A stretch of 17,093 nt of DNA from an uncultured delta proteobacterium (GCA_963708295.1 CAVPSJ010000003.1:1-17093); one strand, 5' to 3'. Counted from the first letter of the stretch, positions 1-15,841 are shown. The notes: generated by a model not told the origin, from the sequence alone. Numbers and translations are program-made.

Positions 1-2
1 AC

Positions 3-1112
3 CTGGTCAAACCAGGACAGACGGTTGCCCTGGTGGTCACGGACATCACACGTCAGCTTTCCGAAGAGATGATTCTTCCTCTTCTCCTCAGGGAACTGGA
101 GACAGGAGGAATCAGGAAGCAGGATATAACGGCTGTGGTGGCCACAGGGACGCATCGCCCCAATACTCCCGAGGAGTTGAAGGAGAAGTTCGGCGACGTG
201 GTAAACGAAATCCCTTTTATCAACCACGACCCTTATGATCCAGATCATTTGGTCAGATTGGGCACTTCCTCAAGTGGGATCCCTCTCGTATTGAATCGAA
301 GGGTTGCTCAGGCCAGTATTCGAATTTCCACGGGGGTCATTGAAACCCATCTCCTTGCAGGTTATAGCGGCGGGGTGAAGAGCATGGCAGTAGGAGTGGC
401 AGGTGAGGAAACCATTGCCGCCACCCATAACTACCAAATGCTTCAGCAGACTCGCCTGGGCATCGTTGAGGGAAACGCGTTCAGGGGATTTCTCACGGAG
501 GCAACGCGGGCCGTTGGTCTTGACTTTATTGTCAATGTCGTGCAGAACGGCAAAAAGGAAGTGGTGAAGATCGTCGCAGGAGATCCTGTGGAGGCTTTTC
601 ACGAAGGAGTGAGGACGGCTCGCCGTCTTTATGAAGTGGAAATTAGTCAGCCTGGCGAGATTGTGGTGAGTGGTGTAAGTTATCCGAAGAGTCGAGACCT
701 TTACCAATCGACCCGGGCGGCCAATGTGGTGGTTTTTGGTCCCCGGCCAGTGGTGACAAAGGGAGGAACGATTCTCATTCCCGCGCCCTGTGAGGACGGA
801 TGCGGCCATCCTGGCTATTGCACTATCATGAGAAGGTCCAAGGATGCAGAGGATGTGATCGCTATCTCCCGCGAAGAGGGATTCGCTGCAGGGGAGCAGA
901 AAGCCTTGATCCTGGCATGGATACTGAAGCGGGCGAGGATTGTGATCACGGACTGTTCCATTCCCGAGGACACGTTAAGGGAAATTCACCTTGAGTCGAG
1001 CCCAACCTTACAGGAGGCTCTGAATCGGGAATTGGAAAGAAGGCCAGGGGCAAGGGTGGTTCTCATCCCCGATGGGCTCTTAACCCTGCCCATCATAAAG
1101 CATAGCGCATAG
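3..1112 (+). CDS. larA: LarA-family nickel-pincer (NPN)-dependent 2-hydroxyacid racemase/epimerase, 5'-truncated by window edge
   Basis: Frame is open from base 3 (LVKPGQTVALVVTDITR). Motifs DITR, GTHR, HLLAGYSGGVK and ATHN have the spacing of L. plantarum LarA D72/R75/H108/H174/K184/H200. C-terminal LYQSTR and PCEDGCG. Substrate is not necessarily lactate. Confidence 0.9.
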   Translation: MVKPGQTVALVVTDITRQLSEEMILPLLLRELETGGIRKQDITAVVATGTHRPNTPEELKEKFGDVVNEIPFINHDPYDPDHLVRLGTSSSGIPLVLNRRVAQASIRISTGVIETHLLAGYSGGVKSMAVGVAGEETIAATHNYQMLQQTRLGIVEGNAFRGFLTEATRAVGLDFIVNVVQNGKKEVVKIVAGDPVEAFHEGVRTARRLYEVEISQPGEIVVSGVSYPKSRDLYQSTRAANVVVFGPRPVVTKGGTILIPAPCEDGCGHPGYCTIMRRSKDAEDVIAISREEGFAAGEQKALILAWILKRARIVITDCSIPEDTLREIHLESSPTLQEALNRELERRPGARVVLIPDGLLTLPIIKHSA

Positions 1113-1143
1113 AGCGAGGCGTAATAGAAATGGAGGAGAAAAA

Positions 1144-2028
1144 ATGGATTTTCAACCTAAGGGGATCATTCCCGCCATGGTTACTCCGGTCACATCCGAC
1201 GGAGAAATCAATGTGGAGGCGCTCCGGAAGCTCACAAATTATTTGATCCAAGGAGGTGTCCATGGGCTGTTTCCAGCCGGCAGCCAAGGAGAATTTTATG
1301 CCCTCACCTTTGAGGAGAAAAAACGTGTGATTGAAGTTGTTGTGGAAGAAGCTAAAGGGAGAGTCCCTGTCTATGCCGGTACAGGAGCCGTCACCACCCG
1401 GGAGGCTGTCGCTTTGACGAAGATGGCAGAGGAAGCGGGTGTGAGTGCCGTCTCCATTCTCACTCCCTTTTTCATTCGACCGAACGAAGAGGAGCTCTTC
1501 GAACACTATTCGGCAATCTCTAAGGCGACACGACTTCCCGTCCTCCTTTATAACAATCCTCAACGGACAGGCGTAAATATTTCAGCTGAATTTGTCGCGC
1601 GGGCCTCTAAGATTGAGAATATCGTCGGAATTAAAGACTCCTCTGGAGATCTAACGCTCTCTTCAGAATATATCAGGAGAACCAGTGATAAGTTTTCTGT
1701 TCTCGCAGGTCGCGATACGCTTATCTACGGAACGCTCTGTTACGGAGGGAAAGGCGCGATTGCAGCGACCGCCAATGTGGCACCTAGGGTGGTTGTTGAA
1801 ATTTATGAGGCCTTTCAGGCTGGAGACTGGAAACGATCGCTGGAGACCCAGTTCCGGTTGGCACCTCTTCGGTTAGCCTTTGATCTTGGAACTTTTCCGG
1901 TGGTGATCAAAGAAGCGCTCAATCTGCTCGGCATCGATGCCGGAGTCGGAATACCGCCCGTGGGGGGGATTACTCCCAAGGCAAAGGCAGAATTGAAAGA
2001 AATCTTGAAAAATATGGAACTACTATAG
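1144..2028 (+). CDS. DapA/NanA-family class I aldolase (DHDPS-like; possibly 2-keto-3-deoxy sugar-acid aldolase or dehydratase)
   Basis: GIIPAMVTP, GSQGEF, LYNNP (catalytic Tyr), GIKDSSG (Schiff-base Lys); GGAGGAG RBS upstream. Confidence 0.9.
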   Translation: MDFQPKGIIPAMVTPVTSDGEINVEALRKLTNYLIQGGVHGLFPAGSQGEFYALTFEEKKRVIEVVVEEAKGRVPVYAGTGAVTTREAVALTKMAEEAGVSAVSILTPFFIRPNEEELFEHYSAISKATRLPVLLYNNPQRTGVNISAEFVARASKIENIVGIKDSSGDLTLSSEYIRRTSDKFSVLAGRDTLIYGTLCYGGKGAIAATANVAPRVVVEIYEAFQAGDWKRSLETQFRLAPLRLAFDLGTFPVVIKEALNLLGIDAGVGIPPVGGITPKAKAELKEILKNMELL

Positions 2029-2035
2029 CAAAAGC

Positions 2036-2127
2036 TAAGGTTGAGGTTGAGGTTGAGGTTAAAGGTGAGCTTAGAAAAATGAAGTCCTGAATCTAAACCT
2101 TAACCTTAACCTTAACCTAAACCTAAT
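2036..2127 (+). repeat. Inverted pair of hexamer tandem arrays, (AGGTTG)n ... (AACCTW)n, forming a long hairpin
   Basis: AGGTTG x3 + AGGTTA at 2038-2061; AACCTT x3 + AACCTA x2 at 2096-2125. Confidence 0.85.
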
Positions 2128-2160
2128 CTTATTTCTGATTTATTACTTTGGGAGGTGATT

Positions 2161-2931
2161 ATGGCTTGGACAGGTTTAAGAAGGAGGGTTCTGGCAGGGG
2201 AATGTGTCTACGGGATGATGATCCGGCAGGCTAGGGATCCGGGGGCGCCAGCGATCTACGCCGCAGCAGGTTATGACTTTGCCTTCATCGATATGGAACA
2301 CGGAAACTACTCGATGGAGACTGTGGCCGATCTCATTCGAGGTGCCAAATCTGCGGGGATTGCGCCGGTTATCAGGATTCCTCATCTGGAGACTCATTTT
2401 ATTTCGAGGGTCTTCGATGCGGGAGCAGAAGGAATCATGGTGCCCATGACTTCTACAAAAGAGCAGGCAGAGGCCATCGTTCATTACAGCAAATATACTC
2501 CCCTGGGACACCGCGGATTCGGATCCCAGACCGGCCAGACGGACTACAAGCCGGTGAAGTCCGTTGAGTTTATGAAAGAGGCAAATGAGCGCACCCTTAT
2601 CATTGCCCAGATCGAGACTCAGGAAGCCGTAGAGAATATTGATGCAATCCTCGGCGTGGAGGGTATTGATGTCGGTCTCATCGGCCCGAATGATCTTTCC
2701 ATCTCCCTGGGCATCCCCGATCAGATGAATTCCGAAAAACTCCTAAAAGCCATCGACAGGGTCGTCGAGGTTGCGAAAAAGAGAAAGAAGGCAACGGGGA
2801 TTCATATTGGAAATATCGAGGCGATTAAGAAGTGGCGTTCCAAAGGAATGACTGTCCTCGCCTATTCGACGGATGTCAGTTTTCAATACAACGCCTCAAA
2901 ATCCAGCCTCGAAGAACTGAAACGGCCATAG
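2161..2931 (+). CDS. HpcH/HpaI-family class II pyruvate aldolase (GarL/RhmA-like)
   Basis: GYDFAFIDMEHG, DAGAEGIMVPM, YTPLGHRG, AQIET, IGPNDLS motifs; GGGAGGT RBS before ATG 2161. Confidence 0.9.
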   Translation: MAWTGLRRRVLAGECVYGMMIRQARDPGAPAIYAAAGYDFAFIDMEHGNYSMETVADLIRGAKSAGIAPVIRIPHLETHFISRVFDAGAEGIMVPMTSTKEQAEAIVHYSKYTPLGHRGFGSQTGQTDYKPVKSVEFMKEANERTLIIAQIETQEAVENIDAILGVEGIDVGLIGPNDLSISLGIPDQMNSEKLLKAIDRVVEVAKKRKKATGIHIGNIEAIKKWRSKGMTVLAYSTDVSFQYNASKSSLEELKRP

Positions 2932-3170
2932 CTTTGCTGTTCAAAGTTTGACGGAGGAGGTTAGAGGCAAATGAACAGATAGATGGATAGATTAAGATTG
3001 AAGCAGTGCTTTGCCCTGAACCGAGTTCGGCTCAAGGTCTCGCTTGAGAGTGAGCGCTGAAAAGTCCTTACCATTCAAAGCCGACACTTCCCATTACCAA
3101 AAACTTCTTCCTCAGTAGTTTTAGCGCGTTTCGTTTTTAATACGTATAGCACCTCGAAATCAACAGGCTT

Positions 3171-4025
3171 TCAAATTGAAAGTACTCTCACTTCTCCCAC
3201 CTCCATCACGTTTAAAATATTTTCTGTCGAACGTACGATTTCTTTTTTGAGATCCTTTTGCGATTGAATGGGAAGAAGCAAGTATTTCATTCTTAGAAAT
3301 TCACTGCTGTCCGCGAAGCGTGCAATTACCTTCTGGACTTCTGAAGGAGATGTTTCCCTTAAGTGGGTTAAAGCCCCACGGAACTCATCTTCTTTATAAC
3401 GCTCCATGATATCATATTCTCGGAATCGCATACGGGATTGGAGGGTATCGATCAGCTTTTTCTCTCCTAACAAGGCAAAGAGGGAGATGCTTCGTATTCC
3501 CTTCTGAGTTAGCTCCCGTCTCCGCTCAAATCCCAATTCAAATCTGGTTTTATAGTCCAGCTCGCTTAGCTTTTCCAGATTTCTCAAAAGGACAATCTGC
3601 TTCCCCGCAGATTGAAACCATCGAAACAGTATATGCTGACTGACCGCCACAAAATGTTCTCCTCTATCTTTTAGCTTGCTTTTTGCTTCTATCTCCTGCA
3701 ATGTATATTCGAATTTCAAGTTCAAATTCTTGGCCAAAAACGCAATTTCCGTGATCTCTCTTTCGCGGCGGGAGTCTCTGTGATAATACTGCCCGTATTT
3801 GCCTTCTAAAAGTTGCCTGGCTCCGCTGATCTTTGTGAGTTGATCCTGAATTTTCTTGTAGGTTTGGCGGGTCTCGGTAATGATATCTATTGGGACATTT
3901 CTCTCCGCGGTAATCGTCAAGCATAGCCCCTGAAATTGGTCCATGGCCTCTCTGAGGTCGATACGGGTATTCTCCATGATTCGTTCTAAGCCTGCGGCAA
4001 TTCCTTGAAAACTTCCTCGCTCCAT
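3171..4025 (-). CDS. Hypothetical protein (284 aa, helical/charged N-terminal half)
   Basis: Long ORF with GGAGGT RBS and an upstream sigma-54 promoter; no family recognised. Confidence 0.75.
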   Translation of the reverse strand: MERGSFQGIAAGLERIMENTRIDLREAMDQFQGLCLTITAERNVPIDIITETRQTYKKIQDQLTKISGARQLLEGKYGQYYHRDSRREREITEIAFLAKNLNLKFEYTLQEIEAKSKLKDRGEHFVAVSQHILFRWFQSAGKQIVLLRNLEKLSELDYKTRFELGFERRRELTQKGIRSISLFALLGEKKLIDTLQSRMRFREYDIMERYKEDEFRGALTHLRETSPSEVQKVIARFADSSEFLRMKYLLLPIQSQKDLKKEIVRSTENILNVMEVGEVRVLSI

Positions 4026-4455: not shown

Positions 4456-4471
4456 AATCAATGCCTTGATT
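4456..4471. promoter_or_regulatory. IHF binding site
   Basis: AATCAATGCCTTG (4456-4468, +) and AATCAAGGCATTG (4471-4459, -) both match WATCAANNNNTTR, just upstream of the sigma-54 -24 box. Confidence 0.65.
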
Positions 4472-4484
4472 GCTAAATGTTTTC

Positions 4485-4501
4485 TTGGCATCTAAATTGC
4501 T
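4485..4501 (+). promoter_or_regulatory. Sigma-54 (-24/-12) promoter for the riboswitch-PilZ-GGDEF transcript
   Basis: TTGGCATCTAAATTGCT, GG-N10-GC; predicted TSS near 4512, upstream of the aptamer. Confidence 0.85.
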
Positions 4502-4536
4502 ATTCAATACAACAGGAACAACTAAAAACCGAAGTT

Positions 4537-4612
4537 TTTCGATAAAGCCAAACCACGAGCAATCGTGGGACGGAAAGCCACGGGTCCCCTGGGGATAGCC
4601 GGGTTGCCTAAG
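4537..4612 (+). ncRNA. Cyclic di-GMP-I (GEMM-I) riboswitch aptamer
   Basis: GCCAAA-CCACGA-GCAA-TCGTGG-GACGG-AAAGCCACGGGTCCC...GGGGATAGCCGGGTTGCC: P2 with GNRA loop, AAAGCC junction and P3 ending TAGCCGGGTTGCC. P1 is weak. Confidence 0.92.
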
Positions 4613-4627
4613 TCAGATCAAAGGGAC

Positions 4628-4673
4628 CGGATTACCGTGGCTTCATTCAAAATGGTAATCCGTTTTTTGTTTT
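4628..4673 (+). terminator. Intrinsic terminator (riboswitch expression platform)
   Basis: CGGATTACCGT (4628-4638) pairs with ATGGTAATCCG (4652-4662), followed by TTTTTTGTTTT. Confidence 0.85.
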
Positions 4674-4742
4674 CAGGGATATTCTTGATGAGTGATGATC
4701 TAAATGAAAAATCAGTTTCCATACTAGGACAAGGGGTGCAGC

Positions 4743-4979
4743 ATGTTGACTGAGATTGATCTGATGCAGTGGATAGAACATTTTGGCCGGTGGAACGTAC
4801 AAGAACTTGTAGCTCAAAGGCAAGACCTATGGGATGTGATCACTTATCTCAGAGCGGAGAGGAGCCTTGAATTGGCCAAGGGCATGGCATTTGTGACCTC
4901 GGACTCGGTTCGTTTTGAAAGGGAAGAACTTTCAAGCCTGTCGCTAAGAGGTCTGAATGATGTGCAGAAGATAGATTGA
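4743..4979 (+). CDS. Small hypothetical protein (78 aa)
   Basis: First ATG ORF after the terminator, AAGGGG RBS-like site, ends shortly before the PilZ gene. Confidence 0.5.
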   Translation: MLTEIDLMQWIEHFGRWNVQELVAQRQDLWDVITYLRAERSLELAKGMAFVTSDSVRFEREELSSLSLRGLNDVQKID

Positions 4980-5021
4980 AACACAAATCTGGTGATAGAA
5001 AGCTGGAGGAACGAGAAGACA

Positions 5022-5438
5022 ATGGAAGAATCATGGAGTAACGGAGAGAAAAGAAGATATCCTCGAATTGTTATTAATTTGCCCCTCGAATACCAGGATA
5101 CGGGTGACACCAGTTTACGCGGAGCAATGGTTGTCAATGCAGGCGAGGGAGGTTTTCTGATCGAATCCACTAGAGACATGCCTGTGGGTACGGAATTAAG
5201 CATCACTCTTCTGTTCTCAAAGGGGTTTGAATTGGCTGACTTCAAAGCGGTGACCAAGATTGTGCGGAAAGAACCTTATCGGAAGGAAAACTCTCAAGGA
5301 AGCCACTCTTGGGAGGGATACCGGTATGGGTTGGAGTTTATTCAGGTCTCAAAGGAGGATCGTTGGAAACTGAACTGGCTGCTTGGTGGGCGATTTGAAT
5401 TTGAGGAAACCTTCCTAAGTTTATTTTCTCAAGTTTAG
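5022..5438 (+). CDS. Stand-alone PilZ-domain protein (c-di-GMP receptor)
   Basis: EKRRYPR (RxxxR) and NAGEGG (variant of D/NxSxxG), C-terminal YGLEF. ATG 5022 follows GGAGG; alternative GTG start at 4992. Confidence 0.88.
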   Translation: MEESWSNGEKRRYPRIVINLPLEYQDTGDTSLRGAMVVNAGEGGFLIESTRDMPVGTELSITLLFSKGFELADFKAVTKIVRKEPYRKENSQGSHSWEGYRYGLEFIQVSKEDRWKLNWLLGGRFEFEETFLSLFSQV

Positions 5439-5452
5439 ATGGAGAGGTCGAA

Positions 5453-6217
5453 ATGAATCGATTCCTTCGTTGTATGGATTGTGGTGAAGGCTTTATGAAA
5501 ACCCCTTTTGACCAGTGCCCAGAATATGGATATGACCCTCATCATCCATCTGAGTCTGTCCAGGTTATAAAGAGGAATGATTTTGAGGAGTTCTTAACAA
5601 CTCATCGCGGACACCGGTTAGAAGATTTGGAAGTAATTGAGAATTCTTTTGTCAGTGAAAGAAACTACCTGGAACCGGTTAAAACCTCTTACCTCAAGGC
5701 AACCAACAGCAAAAATGAAAAGTTTATCATCAAGCGATTTAGAGAAACAAGTGGAGAGAAAGTGAGATATCAGGTCATCCCTGGGGACTACTTCTTGGAA
5801 TGCACTGGAGTGGGAGTTCAATCGGAAGAGATTACGAAACAGCTGAACATGGAATTCAGGACGCATCCCTTTTCCGAAAGCAAAACTTCCAGATTTCTTA
5901 GGTTGTATAGCCGCATCGTCGAGGGTATCGATGTAAAGAAATTAGAGAGAATTTCGGGAGAGTCCTCCCATCCATTAGAGGAATTTTATAAAATCGACGA
6001 CATGAGTTTATTCTACTTATTGAGAAATTGTCGAAATATCTTTAAGGGGGTGGAGTATTCCGGTATTGAGGATTTTATCTACCGTCACAAAGACGATGGG
6101 GTCCTGCTTTTGAAAGCAACATACAGAATTCAAATGATCGAGAAGCCAAAGAACAAAGAAGAAGCTGCCGCGACTGTTATTCCGGCAGAAGTTAAGAAAG
6201 GGATAAGAAAGGGATAA
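5453..6217 (+). CDS. Hypothetical protein with putative N-terminal zinc site (CxxC...HxxH)
   Basis: 254-aa ORF, GGAGAGG RBS, C7-x2-C10 and H51-x2-H54. Confidence 0.75.
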   Translation: MNRFLRCMDCGEGFMKTPFDQCPEYGYDPHHPSESVQVIKRNDFEEFLTTHRGHRLEDLEVIENSFVSERNYLEPVKTSYLKATNSKNEKFIIKRFRETSGEKVRYQVIPGDYFLECTGVGVQSEEITKQLNMEFRTHPFSESKTSRFLRLYSRIVEGIDVKKLERISGESSHPLEEFYKIDDMSLFYLLRNCRNIFKGVEYSGIEDFIYRHKDDGVLLLKATYRIQMIEKPKNKEEAAATVIPAEVKKGIRKG

Positions 6218-6252
6218 TCTTATCCCTCCATGATTGGATCCGTCTCCACTGA

Positions 6253-7251
6253 GTGACTGATGAGAATATGGAAAATCTCACGGATAGCCAAATGAAGGTT
6301 GAGAAACTCCCCGAAGAAAGCCCGGCGCAAACGGGTCGCGCCATGAACGAGCAGGAAGTCACAACCGATTCGTTCTTTGGATTAATCGTGGAATATCTGT
6401 CTAAGCTCCCTCAGTTACTTTTGATATCCATTGGATCCATCTTCGTACTTTTGGTGGGGATTCTTAACCATCTCGCTGGTCCCGAGATTTCTACTACCAT
6501 ATTCTATCTGATCCCCATCGTACTGGTTACCTGGTTTACCAGGAGATCGATTGGATTCATCTTCTCAATCCTCAGTGCTCTCACGTGGTTGATCGCCGAT
6601 CTCACATCGGGGACTACTCACCTCAATTCAGACATCCCTTATTGGAACGGCGTTGCACGGTTGGGTTCTTTTTTTATCCTCACATTCATTCTCTCGACGT
6701 TGAAAAACACCTTAAAGCAAGAAAAAGAATATTCCAGAACCGATTTTTTGACCGGCACTCGGAACCGAAGGTACTTTATCGAGCTTCTCCATATGGAGAT
6801 CAACAGAGCCCGCAGGTATGATCACCCCTTCACCGTCGTGTGCATTGACCTGGACAATTTCAAGACGGTGAATGATTGTTTCGGACACAGCACCGGAGAT
6901 ATGATCCTGCGTTCAGTCGCACGTACCCTGCAAGAAAACATCCGGGTCACAGATACGTTGGCACGGCTGGGGGGTGATGAATTTGCCATCCTGTTGCCGG
7001 AGACCGGACGGAGCGTGGCGAAAACGATCTTGCGCAAGGTTCGGAAGATCAATCTGGACATCATGCGGAGGCATGGGTGGCCTGTCACATTGAGCATCGG
7101 GGTCGTGACCTTCGCCCGTCCACCTTCCACGGTTGACGAAACGCTACAGAAAGCTGATCGACTCATGTATGCTGCAAAAAACAGCGGCAAGGACGGCATT
7201 CGATATGAAATTTTTGGAACGAAAGAACCGCCGGCAGTGGCAGCATCTTAA
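6253..7251 (+). CDS. Membrane-anchored diguanylate cyclase (GGDEF)
   Basis: About 4 hydrophobic segments, then TDFLTG, DLDNFKTVND.FGH..GD, RVTD I-site, RLGGDEF, SIG and ADRLMYAAK. True start may be ATG 6268 or 6343. Confidence 0.95.
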   Translation: MTDENMENLTDSQMKVEKLPEESPAQTGRAMNEQEVTTDSFFGLIVEYLSKLPQLLLISIGSIFVLLVGILNHLAGPEISTTIFYLIPIVLVTWFTRRSIGFIFSILSALTWLIADLTSGTTHLNSDIPYWNGVARLGSFFILTFILSTLKNTLKQEKEYSRTDFLTGTRNRRYFIELLHMEINRARRYDHPFTVVCIDLDNFKTVNDCFGHSTGDMILRSVARTLQENIRVTDTLARLGGDEFAILLPETGRSVAKTILRKVRKINLDIMRRHGWPVTLSIGVVTFARPPSTVDETLQKADRLMYAAKNSGKDGIRYEIFGTKEPPAVAAS

Positions 7252-7311
7252 CGGTCTTTTCGTTGCCGGTTAGGTTTAAGGCATAAATAGAATCGAAAGG
7301 GGTATTCGGGT

Positions 7312-7545
7312 ATGGTTGTTTATAAATTCTATTTGCGTGATCCAATAAAAGGTGACATATTTCTTGGCTCATTACCGGAGAGGAGAAAAAATCCACGAAG
7401 AATTACTGAACAATCCGCCGAAGAATCCATCATTAACTGGGGAAGGACCTATTTTGGTAAGAATGGCAAGGATAAGGATATTTTTTTCATTAAGACTATT
7501 TCGGAGGAGCGAGAAACAAAAACCGACCCCCTCTCCAGCATATAA
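7312..7545 (+). CDS. Small hypothetical protein (77 aa, LPERRKNP.RIT...S..NWG motif)
   Basis: ATG ORF with purine-rich upstream site; resembles from memory a small uncharacterised deltaproteobacterial family (not verified). Confidence 0.65.
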   Translation: MVVYKFYLRDPIKGDIFLGSLPERRKNPRRITEQSAEESIINWGRTYFGKNGKDKDIFFIKTISEERETKTDPLSSI

Positions 7546-7856: not shown

Positions 7857-8828
7857 TCAACCGGGTTTCTTCACAACAACAGGGTTGACCGGATGGACGG
7901 GTTTCTTCCCTTCCAGGACTCTTATAATATCCACGGCCACCCTGCTCATTCTCCTGAGAGCTTCCTCCGTATGGGCGGCCATGTGCGGCGTTCCAATAAA
8001 GTTTTCTAACTGAAAGAGCGGATGATCTTTTGTGGCGGGCTCCACTTCGAACACGTCCGACCCCGCTCCGGCAATCTTCCTTTCCTTGAGCATACGATAA
8101 AGGGCCTTCTCATCCCAGACCGGGCCTCTCGCCACATTGATGATAAAGGCAGTCGGCTTCATGAAGCTGAACTCCCTCTCCCCGACCAACCCCTTCGTCT
8201 CAGGCAACATCGGAAGATTAATGGAGACATAATCGGATTGTGAAAGAACCTCGTCCAGGCTTACCTTCCTCGCCTTTATTTCTTCCTCAACCTCCTGATA
8301 CCGAACGGTATCATAATAGAGGATTTTCATCTCGAATCCCTTGGCTCCCATTCGCGCGACTGTCTTTCCAATTCGACCAAAACCGAGGATGCCGAGTGTC
8401 TTTCCGTGTAGCTCATTCCCGATATACTCGTAACGGGCCTCAAACCGGCCTTCCCTCAACGCAATTTCCCCTTTCTTCAGCATCTTGGAGAGCATCAGGG
8501 CCAGACCGAAGAAATGTTCAGCCACGGAGGCATCGTTGGCATCGGGTGTGTTCACTACCCATATCCCTCTTTCTGTCGCTGCTTCCAGATCAATGTTCTC
8601 CACCCCTACCCCGTGCCTTCCGACGACCTTGAGCTTTGGGGCAGACTCCATCACCTTTCGGCTGGCTCTTCCGTTGGCTCTTACGATAATGCCGTCAATA
8701 TCCCTGACGCGGTCAACGAGATAACCCTCGTCCAGCCGTTCAGCAAAAAAGATGTCCGCTTTCTCTCTCAAAATCGTTTTCCCCTCTTCGTGCATCTCTT
8801 CATAGAGCAACACTTTGAATCTTTCCAT
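7857..8828 (-). CDS. D-isomer-specific 2-hydroxyacid dehydrogenase (SerA-like, no ACT domain)
   Basis: RHGVGVENID, GFGRIG Rossmann motif, NVARG, DVFEVEP, TPHMAA. GGAGG spacing favours ATG 8828 over 8834. Confidence 0.93.
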   Translation of the reverse strand: MERFKVLLYEEMHEEGKTILREKADIFFAERLDEGYLVDRVRDIDGIIVRANGRASRKVMESAPKLKVVGRHGVGVENIDLEAATERGIWVVNTPDANDASVAEHFFGLALMLSKMLKKGEIALREGRFEARYEYIGNELHGKTLGILGFGRIGKTVARMGAKGFEMKILYYDTVRYQEVEEEIKARKVSLDEVLSQSDYVSINLPMLPETKGLVGEREFSFMKPTAFIINVARGPVWDEKALYRMLKERKIAGAGSDVFEVEPATKDHPLFQLENFIGTPHMAAHTEEALRRMSRVAVDIIRVLEGKKPVHPVNPVVVKKPG

Positions 8829-8887
8829 TGTCATACCCTCCGCTTCTTTTCCCTCAACCCTTCACAAGCCTCTCGAAGAATTTCCAA

Positions 8888-8929
8888 CTCACCCTTCCCC
8901 TCTCCCCAGTGGGAGAGGGAGGGGGAAGG
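8888..8929. repeat. REP-like palindrome CCCTCTCCC-N4-GGGAGAGGG
   Basis: Perfect 9-bp stem 8898-8906/8911-8919 plus outer CCTTC/GAAGG. Confidence 0.7.
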
Positions 8930-9062
8930 CGAAGTTTCAAATATTCTGTCTAACATTTAACATAAAAAAAGGGAAGCGGAATTAACGAAAAGCCTCCTCG
9001 ACCCGGCCAGTGATGGGAAATGGGAGGGTGGGACTCCCTTTAGCACTCGTTTTAAAAAAAAC

Positions 9063-9090
9063 TTGACAGATTTTACGAAACTAATATAAT
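9063..9090 (+). promoter_or_regulatory. Sigma-70 promoter of the IclR gene
   Basis: TTGACA (9063-9068), 16-bp spacer, TATAAT (9085-9090). Confidence 0.8.
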
Positions 9091-9117
9091 GTGGAACATC
9101 ATTCCGCATTACGGAAC
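9091..9117. promoter_or_regulatory. Putative IclR-family operator (overlapping palindromes)
   Basis: TTCCG-CATTA-CGGAA (9102-9116) overlapping GTGGAA-CATCA-TTCCGC (9091-9107), directly over the predicted TSS. Confidence 0.6.
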
Positions 9118-9123
9118 GATCAA

Positions 9124-9927
9124 ATGCCTCCAAAAGACCCTTCCAAACCCAGCAACCTGGTCCAAACCATCGAACGTGTTTCTTCGATCCTTGATATGTT
9201 GGCCCAATCTGTTCAGGGCATCAGCATCCGCGAACTATCCTCCGCGATTGGACTTCCCAAGGGGACGACACACCGTCTCCTCTCTTCACTCTCCTATTTC
9301 GGCTACGTCCGGCAGGATCCAAAGACGAGGAACTACTTCTTAGGCCTAAAATTCGTGGAGCTGGGTCAAACGCTTCTTGGCCAGCTCGACCTCAGAAAAG
9401 AGGCCGAGCCTTTTTTGCGGGATCTCGCTGAGCGAACAAACGAAACAATCCATCTGGTCATCCTCGACCGGAACGAGATCGTCTATATCGATAAGGTGGA
9501 AACCGATCGGAATCCGAGCGGTCTAAAGATGGCTTCCAGAATAGGCCTTCGAAACCCTGCACACAGCTCCGCTGTAGGAAAAATGATCCTAGCCAATTTC
9601 TCCGAGGAGGAATTGCGAAGTTTCTTTAAAGAAAAAACTTTGGTGAGAAGAACCGAAAACACGATTACGGACCCGATCCTGTTGCGAGAACACCTGAAAA
9701 CCGTCCGGAAACAAGGATATGCCATTGATGATGAGGAGAACGAAAAGGGAATTCGATGTGTGGCCTCACCCATCTATAACGAGATTGGAAAAACGGTGGC
9801 TGCAATCAGTATCACAGCCCCTGCCTTTCGAGTCACGAAAAAGGTCATTCAAGATACCCTGAAAAGGGAAGTGACGGAAACGGCCCTGAGAATTTCTGAG
9901 AGATTGGGGTATCGAGAAAGGAAATGA
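9124..9927 (+). CDS. IclR-family transcriptional regulator (KdgR/KipR-like)
   Basis: VQTIER...LPKGTTHRLL HTH, NETIHL, HSSAVGK, GYAIDDEENEKGIRCVASPI. ATG 9124 chosen because GTG 9091 abuts the -10 box. Confidence 0.95.
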   Translation: MPPKDPSKPSNLVQTIERVSSILDMLAQSVQGISIRELSSAIGLPKGTTHRLLSSLSYFGYVRQDPKTRNYFLGLKFVELGQTLLGQLDLRKEAEPFLRDLAERTNETIHLVILDRNEIVYIDKVETDRNPSGLKMASRIGLRNPAHSSAVGKMILANFSEEELRSFFKEKTLVRRTENTITDPILLREHLKTVRKQGYAIDDEENEKGIRCVASPIYNEIGKTVAAISITAPAFRVTKKVIQDTLKREVTETALRISERLGYRERK

Positions 9928-10150
9928 ATCGGGAGTTCAAAGTGTACGACAGTGATCGGACCACCTCAATGTATCATACGAAGTTTAGGGCTGAGATTTG
10001 AACTTAAGGGCATGAGGGAGGAAAGTAAAGCTTTTCCAAGCGATCGGAAAGGTTGTTAAGAAGGGGGTGGAAGGCGGGTTGGAGTAAGGTCTTTATGTTT
10101 ATCTTTGTACGTTCAGCATTCACCGTCCGGCGTCAAAAGGAGGAGATAAG

Positions 10151-10615
10151 TTGAAGAAGGATGAAGTAATGGTCGGGGTTGTCATCTTTCTTTTCGGAGG
10201 AGCAACCGTCCTTCTCTCTCTGAAAATGCCCATCGGAACCTTCCGAACGGCGGGGACTGGGATGTTTCCCTTAATTCTCGGGATACTGCTCATGATTTTA
10301 TCGGGCGCCTTCGTTTCAAGAATTTTCTTTGAGGGTAGAGAGGAACAGGTAAAAAAGGAAGTCTCGATTGAATCTTCGGAGTCTCCTAAACAGTTGATCT
10401 TCTTTCTGGGGACAATGGTCCTCGTTACTCTCTTTTTCAACAAATGGGGGTATCCCCTCTCCGCTTTCCTTTTGATGCTGGCACTTTTGAGAGTTCTCGG
10501 AGTGAAAAGGTGGACACTCACTCTGCCTTTATCACTTATGATAGCAGTTGTTTGTTATTTTCTATTCGTCCAATGGCTGAAGATCCCATTGCCCAAGGGG
10601 TGGATTGGAATCTAA
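10151..10615 (+). CDS. tctB: Tripartite tricarboxylate transporter small membrane subunit TctB
   Basis: Hydrophobic, G.G.FP motif, C-terminal F..WL.IPLPKG; TTG start after AAGGAGGAG; adjacent to tctA. Confidence 0.88.
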   Translation: MKKDEVMVGVVIFLFGGATVLLSLKMPIGTFRTAGTGMFPLILGILLMILSGAFVSRIFFEGREEQVKKEVSIESSESPKQLIFFLGTMVLVTLFFNKWGYPLSAFLLMLALLRVLGVKRWTLTLPLSLMIAVVCYFLFVQWLKIPLPKGWIGI

Positions 10616-10684
10616 GAAAAAGTAAAAGAAAGGCCATGGTTAAAGAAGAGCGGGTAGAAGTTCATCGTTCGGGGTCGAGAGTAG

Positions 10685-12193
10685 ATGCTTGAATCACTCC
10701 AACATCTGATTAATGGTTTCGCAATCGCCGGGACAATTCAAAATCTTCTTTATTGTCTGATCGGTTGTATCGTAGGAACCCTCATCGGTGTGCTTCCTGG
10801 AATCGGACCGATCGCCGGGATCGCCCTTCTGATCCCTGCTACATTTGGCCTGAACCCCACTTCTGCCATCATCATGCTTGCGGGAATCTACTACGGAGCA
10901 ATGTACGGAGGCTCTACCACCTCCATCCTCCTCAATGTCCCCGGGGAGACGGCTTCGGTCATCACCTGTATCGATGGCTATCGAATGGCACAAAAAGGGA
11001 GGGCAGGCCCTGCTCTGGCCATCGTTGCCATTGGATCTTTTATTGCAGGCACTCTTGCAATTTTTGGATTGGTCTTTTTGGCCCCGCCATTGGCAGAGGC
11101 AGCATTGGCCTTTGGTCCTCCTGAATATTTTTCTTTAATGGTCTTTGGCTTTATTATTTTGAGCAATGTGACAGGTAAATCACTCCTCAAATCTCTCATG
11201 ATGGCCATCATCGGACTGATCATCGGAACCATCGGGCTCGATCCTGTGACTGGAGATGCCCGTTTTACCTTCGGTTCAGTTCCACTGCTCAGTGGAATCG
11301 AATTTGTTGCTGTCGCTATCGGACTCTTCGGAATTGGAGAGGTTTTGGTCAATGTCAATCAGCCCTCAGAACTGCTGGACCAAGGAGTCCTCATGCCGCG
11401 CCTGAGGGAACTTTATCCCTCCCTTCAAGATTTAAAGAAATCGATGGGTGCAATTCTCAGGGGGACGTTATCTGGATTCGGCATAGGTTTGGTCCCAGGA
11501 CCAGCGCCGGTCATTGCCACTTACGCCGCTTATATGATCGAGAGGAAGGTTTCTAAACACCCCGAGGAGTTTGGTACGGGAGCGATCGAAGGAGTGGCTG
11601 GTCCTGAATCTGCCAACAACTCCGCCTGCCAAGCCGCCTTCATTCCACTGTTTGTCCTTGGAATTCCTTTTGCTCCTCCCACGGCCATTCTTCTGGGTGC
11701 TCTTCTCATCCATGGAGTGTCGCCAGGACCATTAATGATCAGTGAGCATGCTGGACTCTTTTGGGGAGTAATCGCCAGCATGTATATCGGTAACTTTATG
11801 CTTCTCATCCTCAACCTTCCCCTCGTCCCTCTCTTTGCCAACATACTCAGAATTCCTAAGAGAATCCTTTTACCCCTCGTCATCCTTTTCTGCATCACAG
11901 GGATGTATACAGTGAATAACTCCGTTTTCGATGTCTGGATGATGCTCCTCTTCGGTGCGATGGGATTTTTGATGAGGAAATGGGCTTACGAGGGTGCACC
12001 GCTTCTCTTGGCATTAGTCCTCGGGCCAAAATTGGAGGTGGCTTTTAGACAGTCGCTGATGATCTCTCATGGTGATTTCGGAGTCTTTATCAATCGGCCT
12101 GTCTCGATGGCCTTTTTGCTCGGAACGGGCATCTTCCTGATAGGTCCGTTGGTTTGGCTGATGTTTAAAAAAAACAAGAAAGGAGGGGTTTAG
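10685..12193 (+). CDS. tctA: Tripartite tricarboxylate transporter permease TctA
   Basis: GTLIGVLPGIG, YYGAMYGGS...ILLNVPG, GVAGPESANN, LGIP, HGVSPGP. Confidence 0.96.
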   Translation: MLESLQHLINGFAIAGTIQNLLYCLIGCIVGTLIGVLPGIGPIAGIALLIPATFGLNPTSAIIMLAGIYYGAMYGGSTTSILLNVPGETASVITCIDGYRMAQKGRAGPALAIVAIGSFIAGTLAIFGLVFLAPPLAEAALAFGPPEYFSLMVFGFIILSNVTGKSLLKSLMMAIIGLIIGTIGLDPVTGDARFTFGSVPLLSGIEFVAVAIGLFGIGEVLVNVNQPSELLDQGVLMPRLRELYPSLQDLKKSMGAILRGTLSGFGIGLVPGPAPVIATYAAYMIERKVSKHPEEFGTGAIEGVAGPESANNSACQAAFIPLFVLGIPFAPPTAILLGALLIHGVSPGPLMISEHAGLFWGVIASMYIGNFMLLILNLPLVPLFANILRIPKRILLPLVILFCITGMYTVNNSVFDVWMMLLFGAMGFLMRKWAYEGAPLLLALVLGPKLEVAFRQSLMISHGDFGVFINRPVSMAFLLGTGIFLIGPLVWLMFKKNKKGGV

Positions 12194-12233
12194 AAGTTCA
12201 AAGTTCAAAGGAGGGATTCGAAGTTAGAAGTCT
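12194..12233 (+). repeat. Short heptamer tandem repeats
   Basis: AAGTTCA x2 (12194-12207) and GAAGTTA-GAAGTCT (12220-12233). Confidence 0.45.
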
Positions 12234-12297
12234 AAGAACGGTTGAGAACGAGTGGTTTGAGACTGGGTGTCTGTGCTTGAATCGAAAGGAGGCTGTT

Positions 12298-13251
12298 ATG
12301 TTCAAGAGAGTTATTCCGATCCTGTTAGTTATTCTAGGACTCATTGCGGCGATCCCTATTCATGCCGCGGAATTTCCTACCAAAGAAGTTCAAATCATTA
12401 TCCCCTGGGCGGCCGGTGGGGCCACAGACCTGATCTTCAGGGCCCTGGCTGCAACGACAGGGAAATATCTCGGGAAGGCCGTGGTCGTCGTCAACCGACC
12501 GGGCGGAGGAGGTGCTGTGGGATATACCGAAGCCGCACAGGCCAGACCGGATGGCCATACGCTGGTTTCTGCGGTCACCCCTCTCACCATTCTTCCGCAT
12601 CAGGTGACCACTGCCTTCACCTACAAGAACTTCGACGCCATCATCAATGTGGTGGACGATCCATCCATGTTCTTGGTACGATCTGACGCTCCCTGGAAGA
12701 ACCTTAGGGATTTCTTGGATTATGCTAAGAAGAACCCTGACATGATCACGGTAGGGAACTCGGGGGCAGGAGGAGGCGTCCACTTGGTTGCCCTTGCCTT
12801 TGAGAGGGCCGCCGGTGTGAAATTCAATCATATCCCATTTTCAGGCGGAGGACCTTCTGTCACCGCCTTGCTCGGGGGCCATATCAATGCCGTTTCCGTC
12901 TCTCCGCCGGAAGGGATCGAGCATGTGAAAGCGGGCAAGCTCAAGATCATTGCTCTCTTTGCTGAAAAACGATTTGAGATGTTTCCCGATGTTCCGACGG
13001 TCAAGGAACAGGGCATTGATTTCGTGATGGGAATGTGGCGCGGATTGGTTGCGCCCAAAGGCACTCCACCCGATGCGGTGAAGAAACTCCACGATGCTTT
13101 CAAACAGGGGATGGATGATCCGGTTTTCAAGAAGAATGCAAAGGACATGGCAGTCAATCTCTCCTATCTTGGCCCGGAGGCCTTTGGAAAACTTCTGGCC
13201 CATGACCATGAGTTCTTTGGCAAGCTCATCACGGAGATGAAGAAGAAATGA
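12298..13251 (+). CDS. tctC: Tripartite tricarboxylate transporter substrate-binding protein TctC (Bug family)
   Basis: Signal peptide, FPTKEV..IIPWAAGGATD, NRPGGGG, IPFSGGG..VTALLGGH, PDVPT, PKGTP; AAGGAGG RBS before ATG 12298. Confidence 0.95.
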   Translation: MFKRVIPILLVILGLIAAIPIHAAEFPTKEVQIIIPWAAGGATDLIFRALAATTGKYLGKAVVVVNRPGGGGAVGYTEAAQARPDGHTLVSAVTPLTILPHQVTTAFTYKNFDAIINVVDDPSMFLVRSDAPWKNLRDFLDYAKKNPDMITVGNSGAGGGVHLVALAFERAAGVKFNHIPFSGGGPSVTALLGGHINAVSVSPPEGIEHVKAGKLKIIALFAEKRFEMFPDVPTVKEQGIDFVMGMWRGLVAPKGTPPDAVKKLHDAFKQGMDDPVFKKNAKDMAVNLSYLGPEAFGKLLAHDHEFFGKLITEMKKK

Positions 13252-13276
13252 CCCATACCGGAAAGGAGGTAAGCTC

Positions 13277-14278
13277 ATGAGAACTGCAAAGATAGGATTC
13301 ATTTTTTCAATGTTCGCCCTCTCATGTTTCCTCTTCGCCTGTGCGGAGACGGGTACCACGGTCAAACCCACGACCCCAGCGGGGAAGAAGACGACCATTC
13401 GTATTGGGAGTCCGTTTAAAGGAGGTATTGTCGTTGAGGCAGCGGAGAAGTTCCAGGAGCTGGTAGAAAAGGGAAGCGGAGGCCGGTTCGAGGTGAAGAT
13501 TGACGCCGGCACCAAGGCGGAAATTGATATTAATAAGCTAAACAGGGCCGGTGAGCTCGAAATGCAGTCTAACGGGACGAATTTCTTGGAGCTCTACGCT
13601 CCCCCGTACTACTTCTTCACGGGTCCCTACGTCATGAAGGACTTCGATCACTACATGCGCGCCTGGAACGGTAAGCTCGGCCAGGCGGCCCGGGCCCAGT
13701 TAGAGAAAAATGACCTGAAGTACCTGGCAACGATCTACCGGGGGCTGCGGCAGACGACGGCGAAGAAACCGCTCTACACGCCGGCCGATGCGTATAACCT
13801 GAAGCTCCGGCTACCGCCTATCCCCAGTTGGATGGCCGTCTGGAAGGCGATCGGTACCGACCCCGTCGGGGTGCCTTTGCCCGAGCTCTATAACTCGCTC
13901 AAGACGGGCAAGGCCGAAGCCTCCGAGGGCGACCTGCCACAGATCCAATCCTTCAAGCTTGACCAGGTCCAAAGCCATTTGATCATCACCAATCACCTTG
14001 TCCAGACCGCAGGAATCCTGATCCACAAGCCTTTCTTCGACAAGCTGTCCAAGGCGGACCAGGATCTCATCGTCAAGGCCGGGAAGGAGGCGGAGGAGTG
14101 GGCCAACAACAAGATCAAGACCGGAGAGGCAGCCATTCTGGTCGAACTCCAGCGAAAGGGTATGCAGGTGATCATCCCGGACGCCAATTCCTTCCGGGAG
14201 AAGGCCAAGCCGGCTGTCGACGAGCTGTTCAAGACCCAATGGTCGGTCACGACCTGGGCTGAAGTGCTGGCTCAGTAA
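13277..14278 (+). CDS. dctP: TRAP transporter substrate-binding protein DctP, predicted lipoprotein
   Basis: YRGLRQTT, LKLRLPP (carboxylate-binding Arg region), ELYNSLKTG, TNHL; lipobox-like LFA-C22; AAGGAGGT RBS. Confidence 0.88.
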   Translation: MRTAKIGFIFSMFALSCFLFACAETGTTVKPTTPAGKKTTIRIGSPFKGGIVVEAAEKFQELVEKGSGGRFEVKIDAGTKAEIDINKLNRAGELEMQSNGTNFLELYAPPYYFFTGPYVMKDFDHYMRAWNGKLGQAARAQLEKNDLKYLATIYRGLRQTTAKKPLYTPADAYNLKLRLPPIPSWMAVWKAIGTDPVGVPLPELYNSLKTGKAEASEGDLPQIQSFKLDQVQSHLIITNHLVQTAGILIHKPFFDKLSKADQDLIVKAGKEAEEWANNKIKTGEAAILVELQRKGMQVIIPDANSFREKAKPAVDELFKTQWSVTTWAEVLAQ

Positions 14279-14285
14279 TCGTTTC

Positions 14286-14331
14286 AATTCCCCCCTTTGG
14301 CCCCTTTGATATAGAGGGCCAAGGAGGGATT
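14286..14331. repeat. REP-like nested hairpin, possible terminator after dctP
   Basis: AATTCCCCCCTTTGGCCC ... GGGCCAAGGAGGGATT imperfect inverted repeat. Confidence 0.55.
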
Positions 14332-14382
14332 ATTAGGCTTTATTCTCCAAAGGTAGTTGTGTTTTTCCAAAAGTTCAAATCG

Positions 14383-14409
14383 AGATCCCGAAATGAATTC
14401 GGGAAGACA
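14383..14409 (-). repeat. REP-like hairpin (TGTCTTCCCGAATTCATTTCGGGATCT on minus strand)
   Basis: TCCCGAA-N5-TTCGGGA stem; inverted partner of the interrupted copy at 14424-14439 + 14613-14623. Confidence 0.7.
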
Positions 14410-14439
14410 TAAGAAATTATTAGTGTCCTGCTGAATTTA

Positions 14440-14610
14440 CTAAGGAGTCCATAATTGCCCAGACACCATTTTCCGAAAATCTCCCCTAGCCCCTCTTTTC
14501 CAAAGAGGGGTAATTCCTCCCTTTGTAAAAGGGAGGTGAGGAGGGATTTTACAACGAATTCTTCAGTCTTTTCCCTGATTCATATGTCTGCTCTAATATG
14601 GACTGATTCG
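14440..14610. mobile_element. 171-bp MITE-like insertion with imperfect terminal inverted repeats and TA target duplication
   Basis: Ends match at 19/26 positions as inverted repeats (cores AGTCCATA/TATGGACT and CAGACA/TGTCTG). TA at 14438-14439 and 14611-14612. Removal restores the hairpin TGCTGAA-TTTAT-TTCAGCA. Confidence 0.7.
14476..14550. repeat. Y-shaped double-hairpin REP-like element
   Basis: Outer AAAATCTCCCC/GGAGGGATTTT enclosing CCCCTCTTT-TCC-AAAGAGGGG and CCTCCCTTT-GTA-AAAGGGAGG. Confidence 0.8.
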
Positions 14611-14654
14611 TATTTCAGCACCTGATTGAAATAGGAGGCTATTAAGGAGAAGAA

Positions 14655-15761
14655 ATGGCACTCATGGATGAAATCAAAGAGAAAGAAAGAAGGGTGAGAG
14701 AGTTTCTTCGATCAAAGAACCTGAAGGCCTTGCTTCTCAAGCGCCAGGCCAATTTCTCCTGGATGACATGCGGTGGCCTCAATCTCGTAGGGATCGCCAC
14801 GGAATTCGGAGCCACCGCTCTCCTCATCACGGAAGATTCGAAGTATGTCCTATCGAACAACATTGAATCCCCTCGGATGATCGATGAGGAAAAGTTGGAG
14901 AAACAGGGGTTCATTGTGAAGACCTTTCCTTGGTATGAGGATTATGAAGTCCCCCTGGTGAGAGAGCTCATGGAGGGGAATCCCTTCGGAAGTGATGTTC
15001 CATTCCAAAATGCGATGATGGTCGCAGAGGGTGTGGCAAGGCTCCGATATTCACTCACACCCGAGGAACGATATCGGTATCGCTGGCTGGGAGAAAAGGC
15101 CTCTCTGGCGCTGGAAAAAACACTGATGAAGACGAAGAAGGGGGAAACAGAGTCAGAGGTCGTGGGCAGGCTTTGCAACGAAATGTGGAAGGTCCGAATC
15201 GATCCGGTTACATTAATGTCAGCGGCGGATGATCGGATCTCTCAGTTTCGCCATCCGATTCCCACGGAGAAGAAGATCAAAAAATTTTTAATGGTTTCAG
15301 TCAATGCCAGAAAATGGGGCCTGATCGTCTCACTCACTCGCTTCGTCTATTTCGGGAAATTGCCCAAAGCGTTGAGAAGAAAGTACGAAACCAATGTTTA
15401 TATCGATTGCATCCTTATGGCGAACACCCGACCCGGAGTTCCTGCAAGAGATGTTCTCCAAAAAGGAATCGACGCTTATCGAGAAAAGGAATATCCGGAC
15501 GAATGGAAACTCCATCACCAGGGAGGCTCGATCGGCTACACGGGCAGGGACTATCGAGTCAATTTCAAGACCCCTGACATGATCCAGGAGCACCAAGCCT
15601 TCACCTGGAATCCGTCGCTCACCGGGACGAAATCAGAGGATACCGTTCTCGCTACTTCCAAGGGACCGGAGATGATCACCTATCCCATCCGGTACCCTAC
15701 CCTTTCCATGGAGGTGGAGAATGTCCCTTTTGTCCGGCCGGCGATCTTGGAGAAGGCGTGA
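14655..15761 (+). CDS. M24 (pita-bread fold) family protein with degenerate metal site
   Basis: Creatinase/prolidase-like N-terminus (NFSWMTCGG); C-terminal SLTRFVYFG, HHQGGSIG, FTWNPS, KSEDT align to M24 motifs; AAGGA RBS. Confidence 0.85.
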   Translation: MALMDEIKEKERRVREFLRSKNLKALLLKRQANFSWMTCGGLNLVGIATEFGATALLITEDSKYVLSNNIESPRMIDEEKLEKQGFIVKTFPWYEDYEVPLVRELMEGNPFGSDVPFQNAMMVAEGVARLRYSLTPEERYRYRWLGEKASLALEKTLMKTKKGETESEVVGRLCNEMWKVRIDPVTLMSAADDRISQFRHPIPTEKKIKKFLMVSVNARKWGLIVSLTRFVYFGKLPKALRRKYETNVYIDCILMANTRPGVPARDVLQKGIDAYREKEYPDEWKLHHQGGSIGYTGRDYRVNFKTPDMIQEHQAFTWNPSLTGTKSEDTVLATSKGPEMITYPIRYPTLSMEVENVPFVRPAILEKA

Positions 15762-15771
15762 GATGATTCTC

Positions 15772-15810: not shown

Positions 15811-15841
15811 GACCATTGATTAAACGGGGGAGGTTTTGATC

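Follow-up and report, generated by a model that had tools for sequence, protein, structure and literature searches.

A predicted OFF-type c-di-GMP-I riboswitch ahead of diguanylate cyclase and PilZ genes in an uncultured delta proteobacterium, and an unnamed protein family linked to c-di-GMP enzymes

Introduction

RNAs of the GEMM type were tabulated upstream of GGDEF and HD-GYP genes in 2007 (Weinberg 2007, PMC1950547, Table 2), and passages of two reviews describe many c-di-GMP-I-associated genes as making, degrading or sensing cyclic di-GMP (c-di-GMP) (PMC7266159, PMC12564702). Here, we analyze a locus of this kind, in which a sigma-54-type promoter, a c-di-GMP-I (GEMM-I) aptamer and an intrinsic terminator precede five genes. 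It lies on a stretch of 17,093 nucleotides (nt) from an uncultured delta proteobacterium (GCA_963708295.1 CAVPSJ010000003.1:1-17093), hereafter the window, whose positions serve as coordinates throughout. An earlier reading of the window from its sequence alone (the sequence-only reading) had taken the arrangement to be undescribed. This part of it does not stand: since GEMM RNAs ahead of GGDEF and HD-GYP genes have been listed since 2007, the kind of arrangement is already known (PMC1950547, Table 2; passages of PMC7266159 and PMC12564702).

With the known c-di-GMP-I riboswitches, as the sections concerned of these sources present them, the window shares the aptamer class in its receptor-less subtype with a GYRA-type loop (PMC1950547), and likewise the principle that the ligand controls genes which make or sense it (PMC1950547; PMC7266159; PMC12564702). 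It differs in combining a sigma-54 promoter, a terminator-type OFF platform and five genes, among them three unnamed families. In the full-text literature searched, which includes few subscription journals, no operon of cyclase and PilZ genes under an OFF c-di-GMP riboswitch was found as a worked example, nor was a sigma-54 promoter paired with a c-di-GMP riboswitch.

Transcriptional feedback on c-di-GMP enzymes has also been described for proteins. VpsT activates vpvABC in Vibrio cholerae, a protein sensor in a positive loop (in the part of PMC8754643 concerned), and a section of PMC12564702 treats the trigger phosphodiesterases PdeR and PdeL as protein-mediated transcriptional feedback. According to these sections, the gene of a c-di-GMP enzyme is transcribed under the control of a c-di-GMP sensor, as is proposed for the window; however, the sensors there are proteins and the VpsT loop is positive, whereas the window would employ an RNA sensor in a negative loop. 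At the level of the enzyme, PleD and WspR show product inhibition at an RxxD inhibition site (I-site). The window cyclase resembles them in its RVTD motif and aligns with them. Feedback through the I-site works at the enzyme itself; for the window cassette, a further layer at the level of transcription is proposed.

Our best explanation of the locus, towards which we lean with modest confidence, is an OFF c-di-GMP riboswitch on a sigma-54 operon that includes a cyclase and a PilZ protein, by which negative feedback would arise at the level of the RNA. Computation gives good support to the sequence elements and to the OFF design; the single transcript and the feedback are plausible. New and most useful here is the apparent link of one of the unnamed families, represented by a protein of 254 amino acids (aa), to c-di-GMP enzymes, as gene order suggests.

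Results and Discussion

Control region and gene order

The region is best explained as an operon body together with its 5' control region in an uncultured, Syntrophaceae-like member of the Thermodesulfobacteriota. It comprises the following elements, given as coordinates, strand and description.

4486..4501, plus strand: sigma-54-type promoter with -24 GG and -12 GC, TGGCATCTAAATTGCT (pattern match)
4538..4612, plus strand: c-di-GMP-I (GEMM-I) aptamer (RF03167, clan CL00126)
4575..4583, plus strand: antiterminator, 5' strand, AAGCCACGG; in the aptamer, these nucleotides make up the 5' strand of the second helix (free minimum-energy folds)
4628..4673, plus strand: intrinsic terminator with an 11-bp (base pair) stem, a 13-nt loop and a U6GU4 tail (folding)
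4635..4643, plus strand: 3' strand of the antiterminator, CCGUGGCUU, overlapping the terminator in the upper four stem pairs and in part of the loop (folding)
4743..4979, plus strand: gene of a 78-aa protein, no family
5022..5438, plus strand: PilZ gene (PF07238), 138 aa from ATG 5022, with an open frame from GTG 4992
5453..6217, plus strand: gene of the 254-aa protein with CxxC and HxxH, no family
6253..7251, plus strand: membrane GGDEF gene (PF00990, E 1.8e-42)
7312..7545, plus strand: gene of a 77-aa protein, no family

The sequence-only reading had listed the promoter, the GEMM-I aptamer, the terminator and five co-oriented genes with short gaps, and all of these are confirmed. The control elements occupy the 460-nt gap that separates the first plus-strand gene from a gene on the minus strand (3171-4025), and the five genes follow each other with successive gaps of 12 or 42, 14, 35 and 60 nt. 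Homologues were found for all three unnamed proteins (574 for the 254-aa protein, 346 for the 77-aa protein and 49 cluster representatives for the 78-aa protein), and we therefore regard all three open reading frames (ORFs) as real genes.

The expression platform

When the leader is folded freely, the stretch 4575-4583 pairs with 4635-4643 once the latter has been made, and this pairing breaks the terminator. The resulting antiterminator state is favoured by 9.7-18 kcal/mol over the one in which the Rfam aptamer pairs are enforced. With the aptamer pairs enforced, the rest of the leader folds into the full 11-bp terminator, in which 4628-4638 pairs with 4652-4662 and U6GU4 follows directly (4663-4673); in the model, this happens only then. 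The antiterminator fold and the aptamer/terminator fold are mutually exclusive, and the binding of ligand is therefore expected to release the terminator, giving OFF logic. The OFF riboswitch of the sequence-only reading is thus upheld by constrained folding, in an energy model that ignores ligand, tertiary contacts and kinetics; in vivo, the riboswitch is probably of the OFF kind. Among 2000 dinucleotide shuffles of the platform, 33 contained a perfect complement of at least 9 nt, as seen here. The terminator had been missed by a pattern scanner, because that scanner admits loops of 3-8 nt only and the loop has 13 nt.

The aptamer

The aptamer (75 nt) scores 66.4 bits with RF03167 against a gathering score of 59 (cmscan, E 4.5e-14, model positions 1-80 of 80) and is the only Rfam match over the gathering score in the window. 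It consists of a P1a hairpin with a GCAA loop and a short second hairpin without tetraloop receptor, an architecture that fits the receptor-less c-di-GMP-I subtype described in 2007 (PMC1950547, in the part on this subtype). A second aptamer of the same type was found in one of the related loci introduced below, L005. Comparing the two, standard pairs occur in 39 of 42 pair cells and 3 of 21 pairs are changed on both sides, while slid controls reach 27-51% pairing; two sequences are a thin sample for this comparison.

The promoter

The promoter TGGCATCTAAATTGCT is one base off TGGCAC-N5-TTGCW (15 of the 16 pattern positions are matched at 4486-4501, with the GG and GC elements ten bases apart in TGGCAC-N5-TTGC) and is the sole such site within the window. 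On its own the pattern is weak evidence, because 0.32 sites are expected by chance per window and 55 of 200 shuffles contain at least one. A relaxed pattern, TGGCA[CT]-N5-[TA]TGC[TA], was scanned on both strands of the window and the 26 related loci, about 288 kb (kilobases) altogether. Only two matches were obtained, each 32-36 nt upstream of an aptamer and on the same strand, and the two aptamers so preceded, those of the window and of L005, are the only riboswitch aptamers in the window and the 26 loci. An upstream motif common to the window and L005, as would mark an activator site, was not found, and a domain search of the window proteins revealed no activator gene.

Proposed mechanism

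Under the explanation preferred here, transcription would begin at the sigma-54 promoter, for which an enhancer-binding activator should be needed, and the leader would then fold into the c-di-GMP-I aptamer. At low c-di-GMP, 4575-4583 would pair with 4635-4643, the top of the terminator stem would be lost and the polymerase would read into the genes. At high c-di-GMP, the ligand would lock 4575-4583 in the aptamer, the hairpin 4628-4662 and its U-tract would form, and transcription would stop. The products so switched would comprise the small 78-aa and 77-aa proteins, encoded first and last, and between them the PilZ receptor, the putatively zinc-binding 254-aa protein, whose family is elsewhere coupled to an HD-GYP phosphodiesterase, and the cyclase, which is anchored in the membrane and retains an intact site for product inhibition. 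The set of cyclase and receptor would be made solely while c-di-GMP is low, and such expression would cap the cyclase's own contribution, an RNA-level negative feedback on top of I-site inhibition.

Cyclase and PilZ protein

The GGDEF protein is predicted to be an active membrane diguanylate cyclase. Its domain scores 145.3 bits with PF00990 (E 1.8e-42) and 152.7 bits with TIGR00254 (cut-off 37.4), and it matches 30 solved cyclases at E<=1e-20, including PleD (1w25) and WspR (3bre). The GGDEF motif at residue 240 is intact. The RxxD site claimed by the sequence-only reading is present as RVTD (residues 231-234), five residues upstream of GGDEF; its counterpart in the alignment with 3ign is RQSD. 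The last residue of the motif NDCFGHSTGD is D, not S, which we take to fit a synthase of c-di-GMP rather than the Hypr type that makes cyclic GMP-AMP (cGAMP). Upstream of the GGDEF domain, the protein is hydrophobic over its N-terminal half and has about four transmembrane segments (49-118 by scan, a further one at about 135-155 by eye). The start is ambiguous (GTG 6253 or ATG 6268), and a clear ribosome-binding site is absent there.

The PilZ protein consists of a single domain (PF07238, 32.5 bits against a cut-off of 22.5, E 1.2e-7); no solved relative was found in the PDB at E<=1. GGAGG lies 12 nt upstream of its ATG 5022. We take the binding consensus of PilZ domains to be RxxxR plus (D/N)xSxxG. 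The first motif is present as RRYPR at residue 11. DTSLRG at residue 29 fits the letters of the second, but lies just 13 residues past RxxxR; the candidate at the usual spacing is taken up below.

The 254-aa family and its related loci

In the 254-aa family, C7, C10, H51, H54 and C193 are conserved, together with a motif YLLRNCRNIF. The conserved cysteines and histidines suggest a metal site, and the protein is a putative zinc-binding protein. Pfam, NCBIfam, PADLOC and PHROGs hold no match to it, and tblastn against plasmids gave none. Longer, fused forms were searched for and none was found, which is weak evidence.

Several distant resemblances were followed up and dropped. A PDB profile search returned the aE/catalytic-loop region of the EGFR kinase (E 0.004-0.7), a weak resemblance that we treat as chance. 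The ESM Atlas model of one homologue (P0111) is poor, with a predicted local distance difference test (pLDDT) value of 0.51; GGDEF proteins make up 5 of its 10 structural neighbours, at template-modelling (TM) scores of merely 0.26-0.33. A GGDEF-like fold was rejected, hhalign giving a probability of at most 0.6% against the GGDEF protein of the window. Against the PilZ protein and a REC-HD-GYP alignment, the probability was likewise at most 0.6%. Residues 97-118 of the 254-aa protein (5741-5806) align with PilZ residues 15-35 (5064-5126), just past RxxxR, at 0.12%, which is not significant.

Scanning species-representative genomes with the family alignment yielded 26 related loci, all from Syntrophaceae or Thermodesulfobacteriota metagenome-assembled genomes (MAGs) and with 47-63% identity. 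One 254-aa relative (P0085) and one 77-aa relative (P0164), from different sources, are both listed with a longest contig of 3517 nt, from which we conclude nothing. Their gene order is GAF histidine kinase, AAA+/HisKA protein, NtrC-type sigma-54 activator, REC-HD-GYP protein, 254-aa gene and CcsB. The REC-HD-GYP gene stands immediately upstream of the 254-aa gene in 24 of the 25 readable loci, and in the remaining one the contig end cuts the neighbour; the gap between the two is 0-25 nt, with one case of 63 nt. This conserved, tight gene order provides independent support for tying the family to a c-di-GMP phosphodiesterase, and a role of the family in c-di-GMP signalling is supported because its gene follows REC-HD-GYP in these 24 loci.

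The sequence-only reading had named all three unknown proteins as candidate components of the c-di-GMP pathway. From the related loci, the 254-aa protein gains independent support in this respect, the 77-aa protein is weakly favoured by its recurrence described in the next section, and for the 78-aa protein nothing of the kind was found.

In loci L001-L025, the conserved signalling operon covers the match together with about 6 kb on its upstream side (e.g., L004:21-7750). Its NtrC-type activator scores 469.5 bits with TIGR02915, the PEP-CTERM-box regulator, just below the cut-off of 502.6. This activator might drive sigma-54 promoters like the one before the PEP-CTERM gene of L005.

A tree of 146 family proteins, from which the partial copy of L026 was left out, shows two clades with a support of 98 each in the SH-like approximate likelihood ratio test (SH-aLRT). 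The window protein and 91 metagenome proteins form one clade (92 rows), and all 25 locus proteins form the other.

The 77-aa and 78-aa families and the unit in L005

The 77-aa family has 67-92% identity among the 120 matches listed of its 346 homologues, with an invariant PERR-x-NP motif. In the ESM Atlas, its homologue P0163 leads to hypothetical clusters only. The 78-aa protein has a conserved core of about 60 aa, and AAGGGG, a Shine-Dalgarno-like sequence, lies 7 nt upstream of its gene; its 49 cluster representatives were found at E<=1e-3, 12 of them at E<=1e-10. No match to the 78-aa protein is held by Pfam, NCBIfam, PADLOC or PHROGs. Against the PDB, neither small protein gave anything below E 0.2. 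A relationship between the two families was considered and they were found unrelated.

The 77-aa family occurs once among the related loci, in L005 (Thermodesulfobacteriota MAG contig JBEKWN010000022.1), where it belongs to a second riboswitch-led unit:

L005:7295-7310, same strand as the aptamer: sigma-54-type element, 32 nt upstream of the aptamer
L005:7343-7420: aptamer of the same type, 63.1 bits, best model RF03167
L005:7621-8289: PEP-CTERM protein gene, first gene of the unit
L005, to 8546: 77-aa family gene, last gene, overlapping the end of the PEP-CTERM gene
L005:8581-8603: terminator closing the unit

This unit resembles the window in its sigma-54-type promoter, aptamer type, terminator-based platform and terminal 77-aa gene. 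In contrast to the window, its first gene encodes a PEP-CTERM protein, it lacks PilZ, GGDEF and 78-aa genes, and it is predicted to be an ON switch: the 5' arm of its terminator is the aptamer's own 3' half. Because the same aptamer type is joined to the opposite logic in L005, the window platform looks like a specific design. Both riboswitch-led units (2 of 2) end with the 77-aa family, under opposite logic.

Two further observations concern the L005 leader and its surroundings. At L005:7527-7569, immediately ahead of the PEP-CTERM gene and about 110 nt past the riboswitch terminator, there is a second strong hairpin with U-tract, and the leader thus holds two terminators in series. Between the terminator of the 254-aa gene and the riboswitch unit, L005:6917-6965 (minus strand) resembles, on inspection by eye, the 3' part of a tRNA; ARAGORN called no tRNA there, and the stretch may be a remnant of an insertion site.

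Weighing the explanation

A number of points weigh against the explanation as an OFF riboswitch on a single feedback operon. Free-energy folding by itself does not favour the aptamer, whose function therefore depends on ligand and tertiary energy. The 13-nt loop of the terminator is longer than usual, and the P1 helix, which has just three pairs including a C-U pair, is weak. In the PilZ protein, the second motif at the usual spacing reads NAGEGG (residue 39), with G where the consensus has S. Weak sigma-70-like sites on the plus strand (6110-6138 and 6794-6822) make an internal promoter possible. Relatives of the PilZ, GGDEF and 78-aa genes of the window were found at none of the 26 related loci (tblastn, E<=1e-4). 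Finally, the 77-aa family is under an ON switch in L005 and under an OFF switch in the window, which argues against a simple tie of this family to one c-di-GMP level.

From the shared strand, the short gaps and the absence of an internal terminator, we infer that the five genes are co-transcribed as one unit. The sequence-only reading had named an independent promoter or terminator between the PilZ and GGDEF genes as fatal to its case; in 4700-7545, the plus strand contains no hairpin with U-tract between genes. The competing view that the riboswitch governs only the first gene or genes, while separate promoters serve the cyclase gene, the 77-aa gene or both and no single transcript couples synthase and receptor to the switch, is doubtful and yet the one to be taken most seriously. 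It draws on the gaps of 35 nt before the cyclase gene and 60 nt before the 77-aa gene, on the lack of a clear ribosome-binding site at the cyclase start, on the two sigma-70-like sites, on a 7-bp hairpin over the 254-aa stop codon (6210-6227), and on the 77-aa family standing under opposite riboswitch logic in L005. However, promoter-like sites are no commoner than in shuffles (7 found against 6.0 expected, i.e., not enriched), all five genes lie on one strand with short gaps, and no hairpin with U-tract separates them. The hairpin at 6210-6227, just before the cyclase gene, is itself without U-tract; it could affect RNA processing or stability.

Conservation of the cassette in other genomes, the absence of which the sequence-only reading had accepted as a refutation, was not observed: the linkage of PilZ, 254-aa and GGDEF genes is kept at none of the 26 readable related loci, and conservation is therefore not shown. 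Along this line, no PilZ, GGDEF or EAL domain was detected by Pfam in 34 ORFs from these loci; the 34 belong to 36 ORFs chosen to represent everything outside the three main clusters, the other two, the PEP-CTERM and 77-aa genes of L005, were covered by a separate scan or alignment. The cassette could accordingly be a lineage-specific rearrangement without function as a module, the usual home of the 254-aa gene being the operon of histidine kinase, NtrC-type activator and REC-HD-GYP protein. The HD-GYP context in 24 of 25 loci and the lower GC content of the cassette (45.1%, against 49-50% in the flanks) speak for such an event. We consider it rather unlikely, as the window protein sits in a separate, well-supported clade (SH-aLRT 98; 91 of its 92 rows from metagenomes), and the contexts of the related loci say little on that clade because no tree-placed locus falls into it. 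The 14-nt gap behind the PilZ gene, with its strong GGAGAGG ribosome site, moreover suggests operonic coupling.

That the aptamer senses another ligand, or none, is improbable, even though its P1 is weak and it scores best in Rfam with the 'GGC' variant RF03167 instead of the parent RF01051, whose overlapping scores are hidden by the clan filter of the covariance search. We take 'GGC' to stand for a middle G at the position equivalent to A47, and the ligand of this variant presumably is not established. The consensus of RF03167 has G at model position 37, whereas A is found both in the window (A4574) and in L005, so that neither aptamer has the G by which, on this understanding of the name, the variant is defined. 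By position in the cmscan alignment, the junction nucleotides expected to contact the ligand are G4547, A4574 and C4607, the likely equivalents of Vc2 G20, A47 and C92. With A at position 37, the junction consequently reads G, A, C, the triplet also found in validated binders of c-di-GMP; RF03167 is the best-scoring model for both aptamers, yet both carry the G, A, C of the parent class. In Vc2, G20 and C92 read both guanines of c-di-GMP, and cGAMP sensors have A at the first position (in the parts of PMC6140456 and PMC5888326 concerned). The genes downstream of the aptamer are, furthermore, c-di-GMP genes, and the computation as a whole supports an aptamer of the c-di-GMP-I type that would bind c-di-GMP. 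The automatic RF03167 label on 4538-4612 of the window and on L005:7343-7420 may mislead annotators.

An ON switch, in which ligand would favour read-through, is very improbable: the related L005 aptamer is predicted ON and energy models leave out kinetics and tertiary structure, but the window terminator does not overlap the aptamer, and the only strong alternative pairing joins one aptamer strand to one terminator strand, which gives OFF.

Upstream region and neighbourhood

A further element of possible regulatory function lies upstream of the promoter:

4456..4471, both strands: palindrome AATCAATGCCTTGATT, match to an IHF-type (integration host factor) consensus, centred about 50 nt ahead of where transcription is expected to start

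We take WATCAANNNNTTR to be the IHF-type consensus. It has only two matches in the window, overlapping at 4456-4471 on opposite strands, with a chance expectation of 0.72; the same stretch was also picked up as an inverted repeat. The palindrome may have an IHF-type role.

The next gene 3' of the cassette, on the opposite strand, encodes a 2-hydroxyacid dehydrogenase (7857-8834). Both flanks (1-4025 and 7857-17091) form a neighbourhood of carboxylate metabolism and transport, with LarA-like, DHDPS-family, HpcH aldolase, 2-hydroxyacid dehydrogenase, IclR, TctABC, DctP, M24 peptidase and zinc alcohol dehydrogenase genes. The divergent gene at 3171-4025 (minus strand) encodes a protein of 284 aa that is predicted to be soluble and is without match in Pfam, NCBIfam, PADLOC and PHROGs.

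Implications

A bolder proposal, which we offer tentatively, is that the 254-aa family comprises undescribed c-di-GMP signalling partners in Syntrophaceae-like bacteria, encoded always directly beside a c-di-GMP enzyme or receptor: REC-HD-GYP in one clade, and PilZ and cyclase under a sigma-54 promoter and an OFF riboswitch in that of the window. The window locus would then act as an activator-gated, self-limiting generator of c-di-GMP pulses, and the 77-aa family would be a second recurrent member of riboswitch-led units.

If the explanation as an OFF riboswitch on a feedback operon is true, the locus would be a clear natural case of a second messenger that limits its own synthase at the levels of both RNA and enzyme, with a sigma-54 activator as an extra gate. 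It also points to three conserved unnamed families, the 254-aa family being the best supported, as candidates for c-di-GMP binding or for partnership with c-di-GMP enzymes. These candidate families belong to a poorly studied, uncultured group of syntrophic bacteria.

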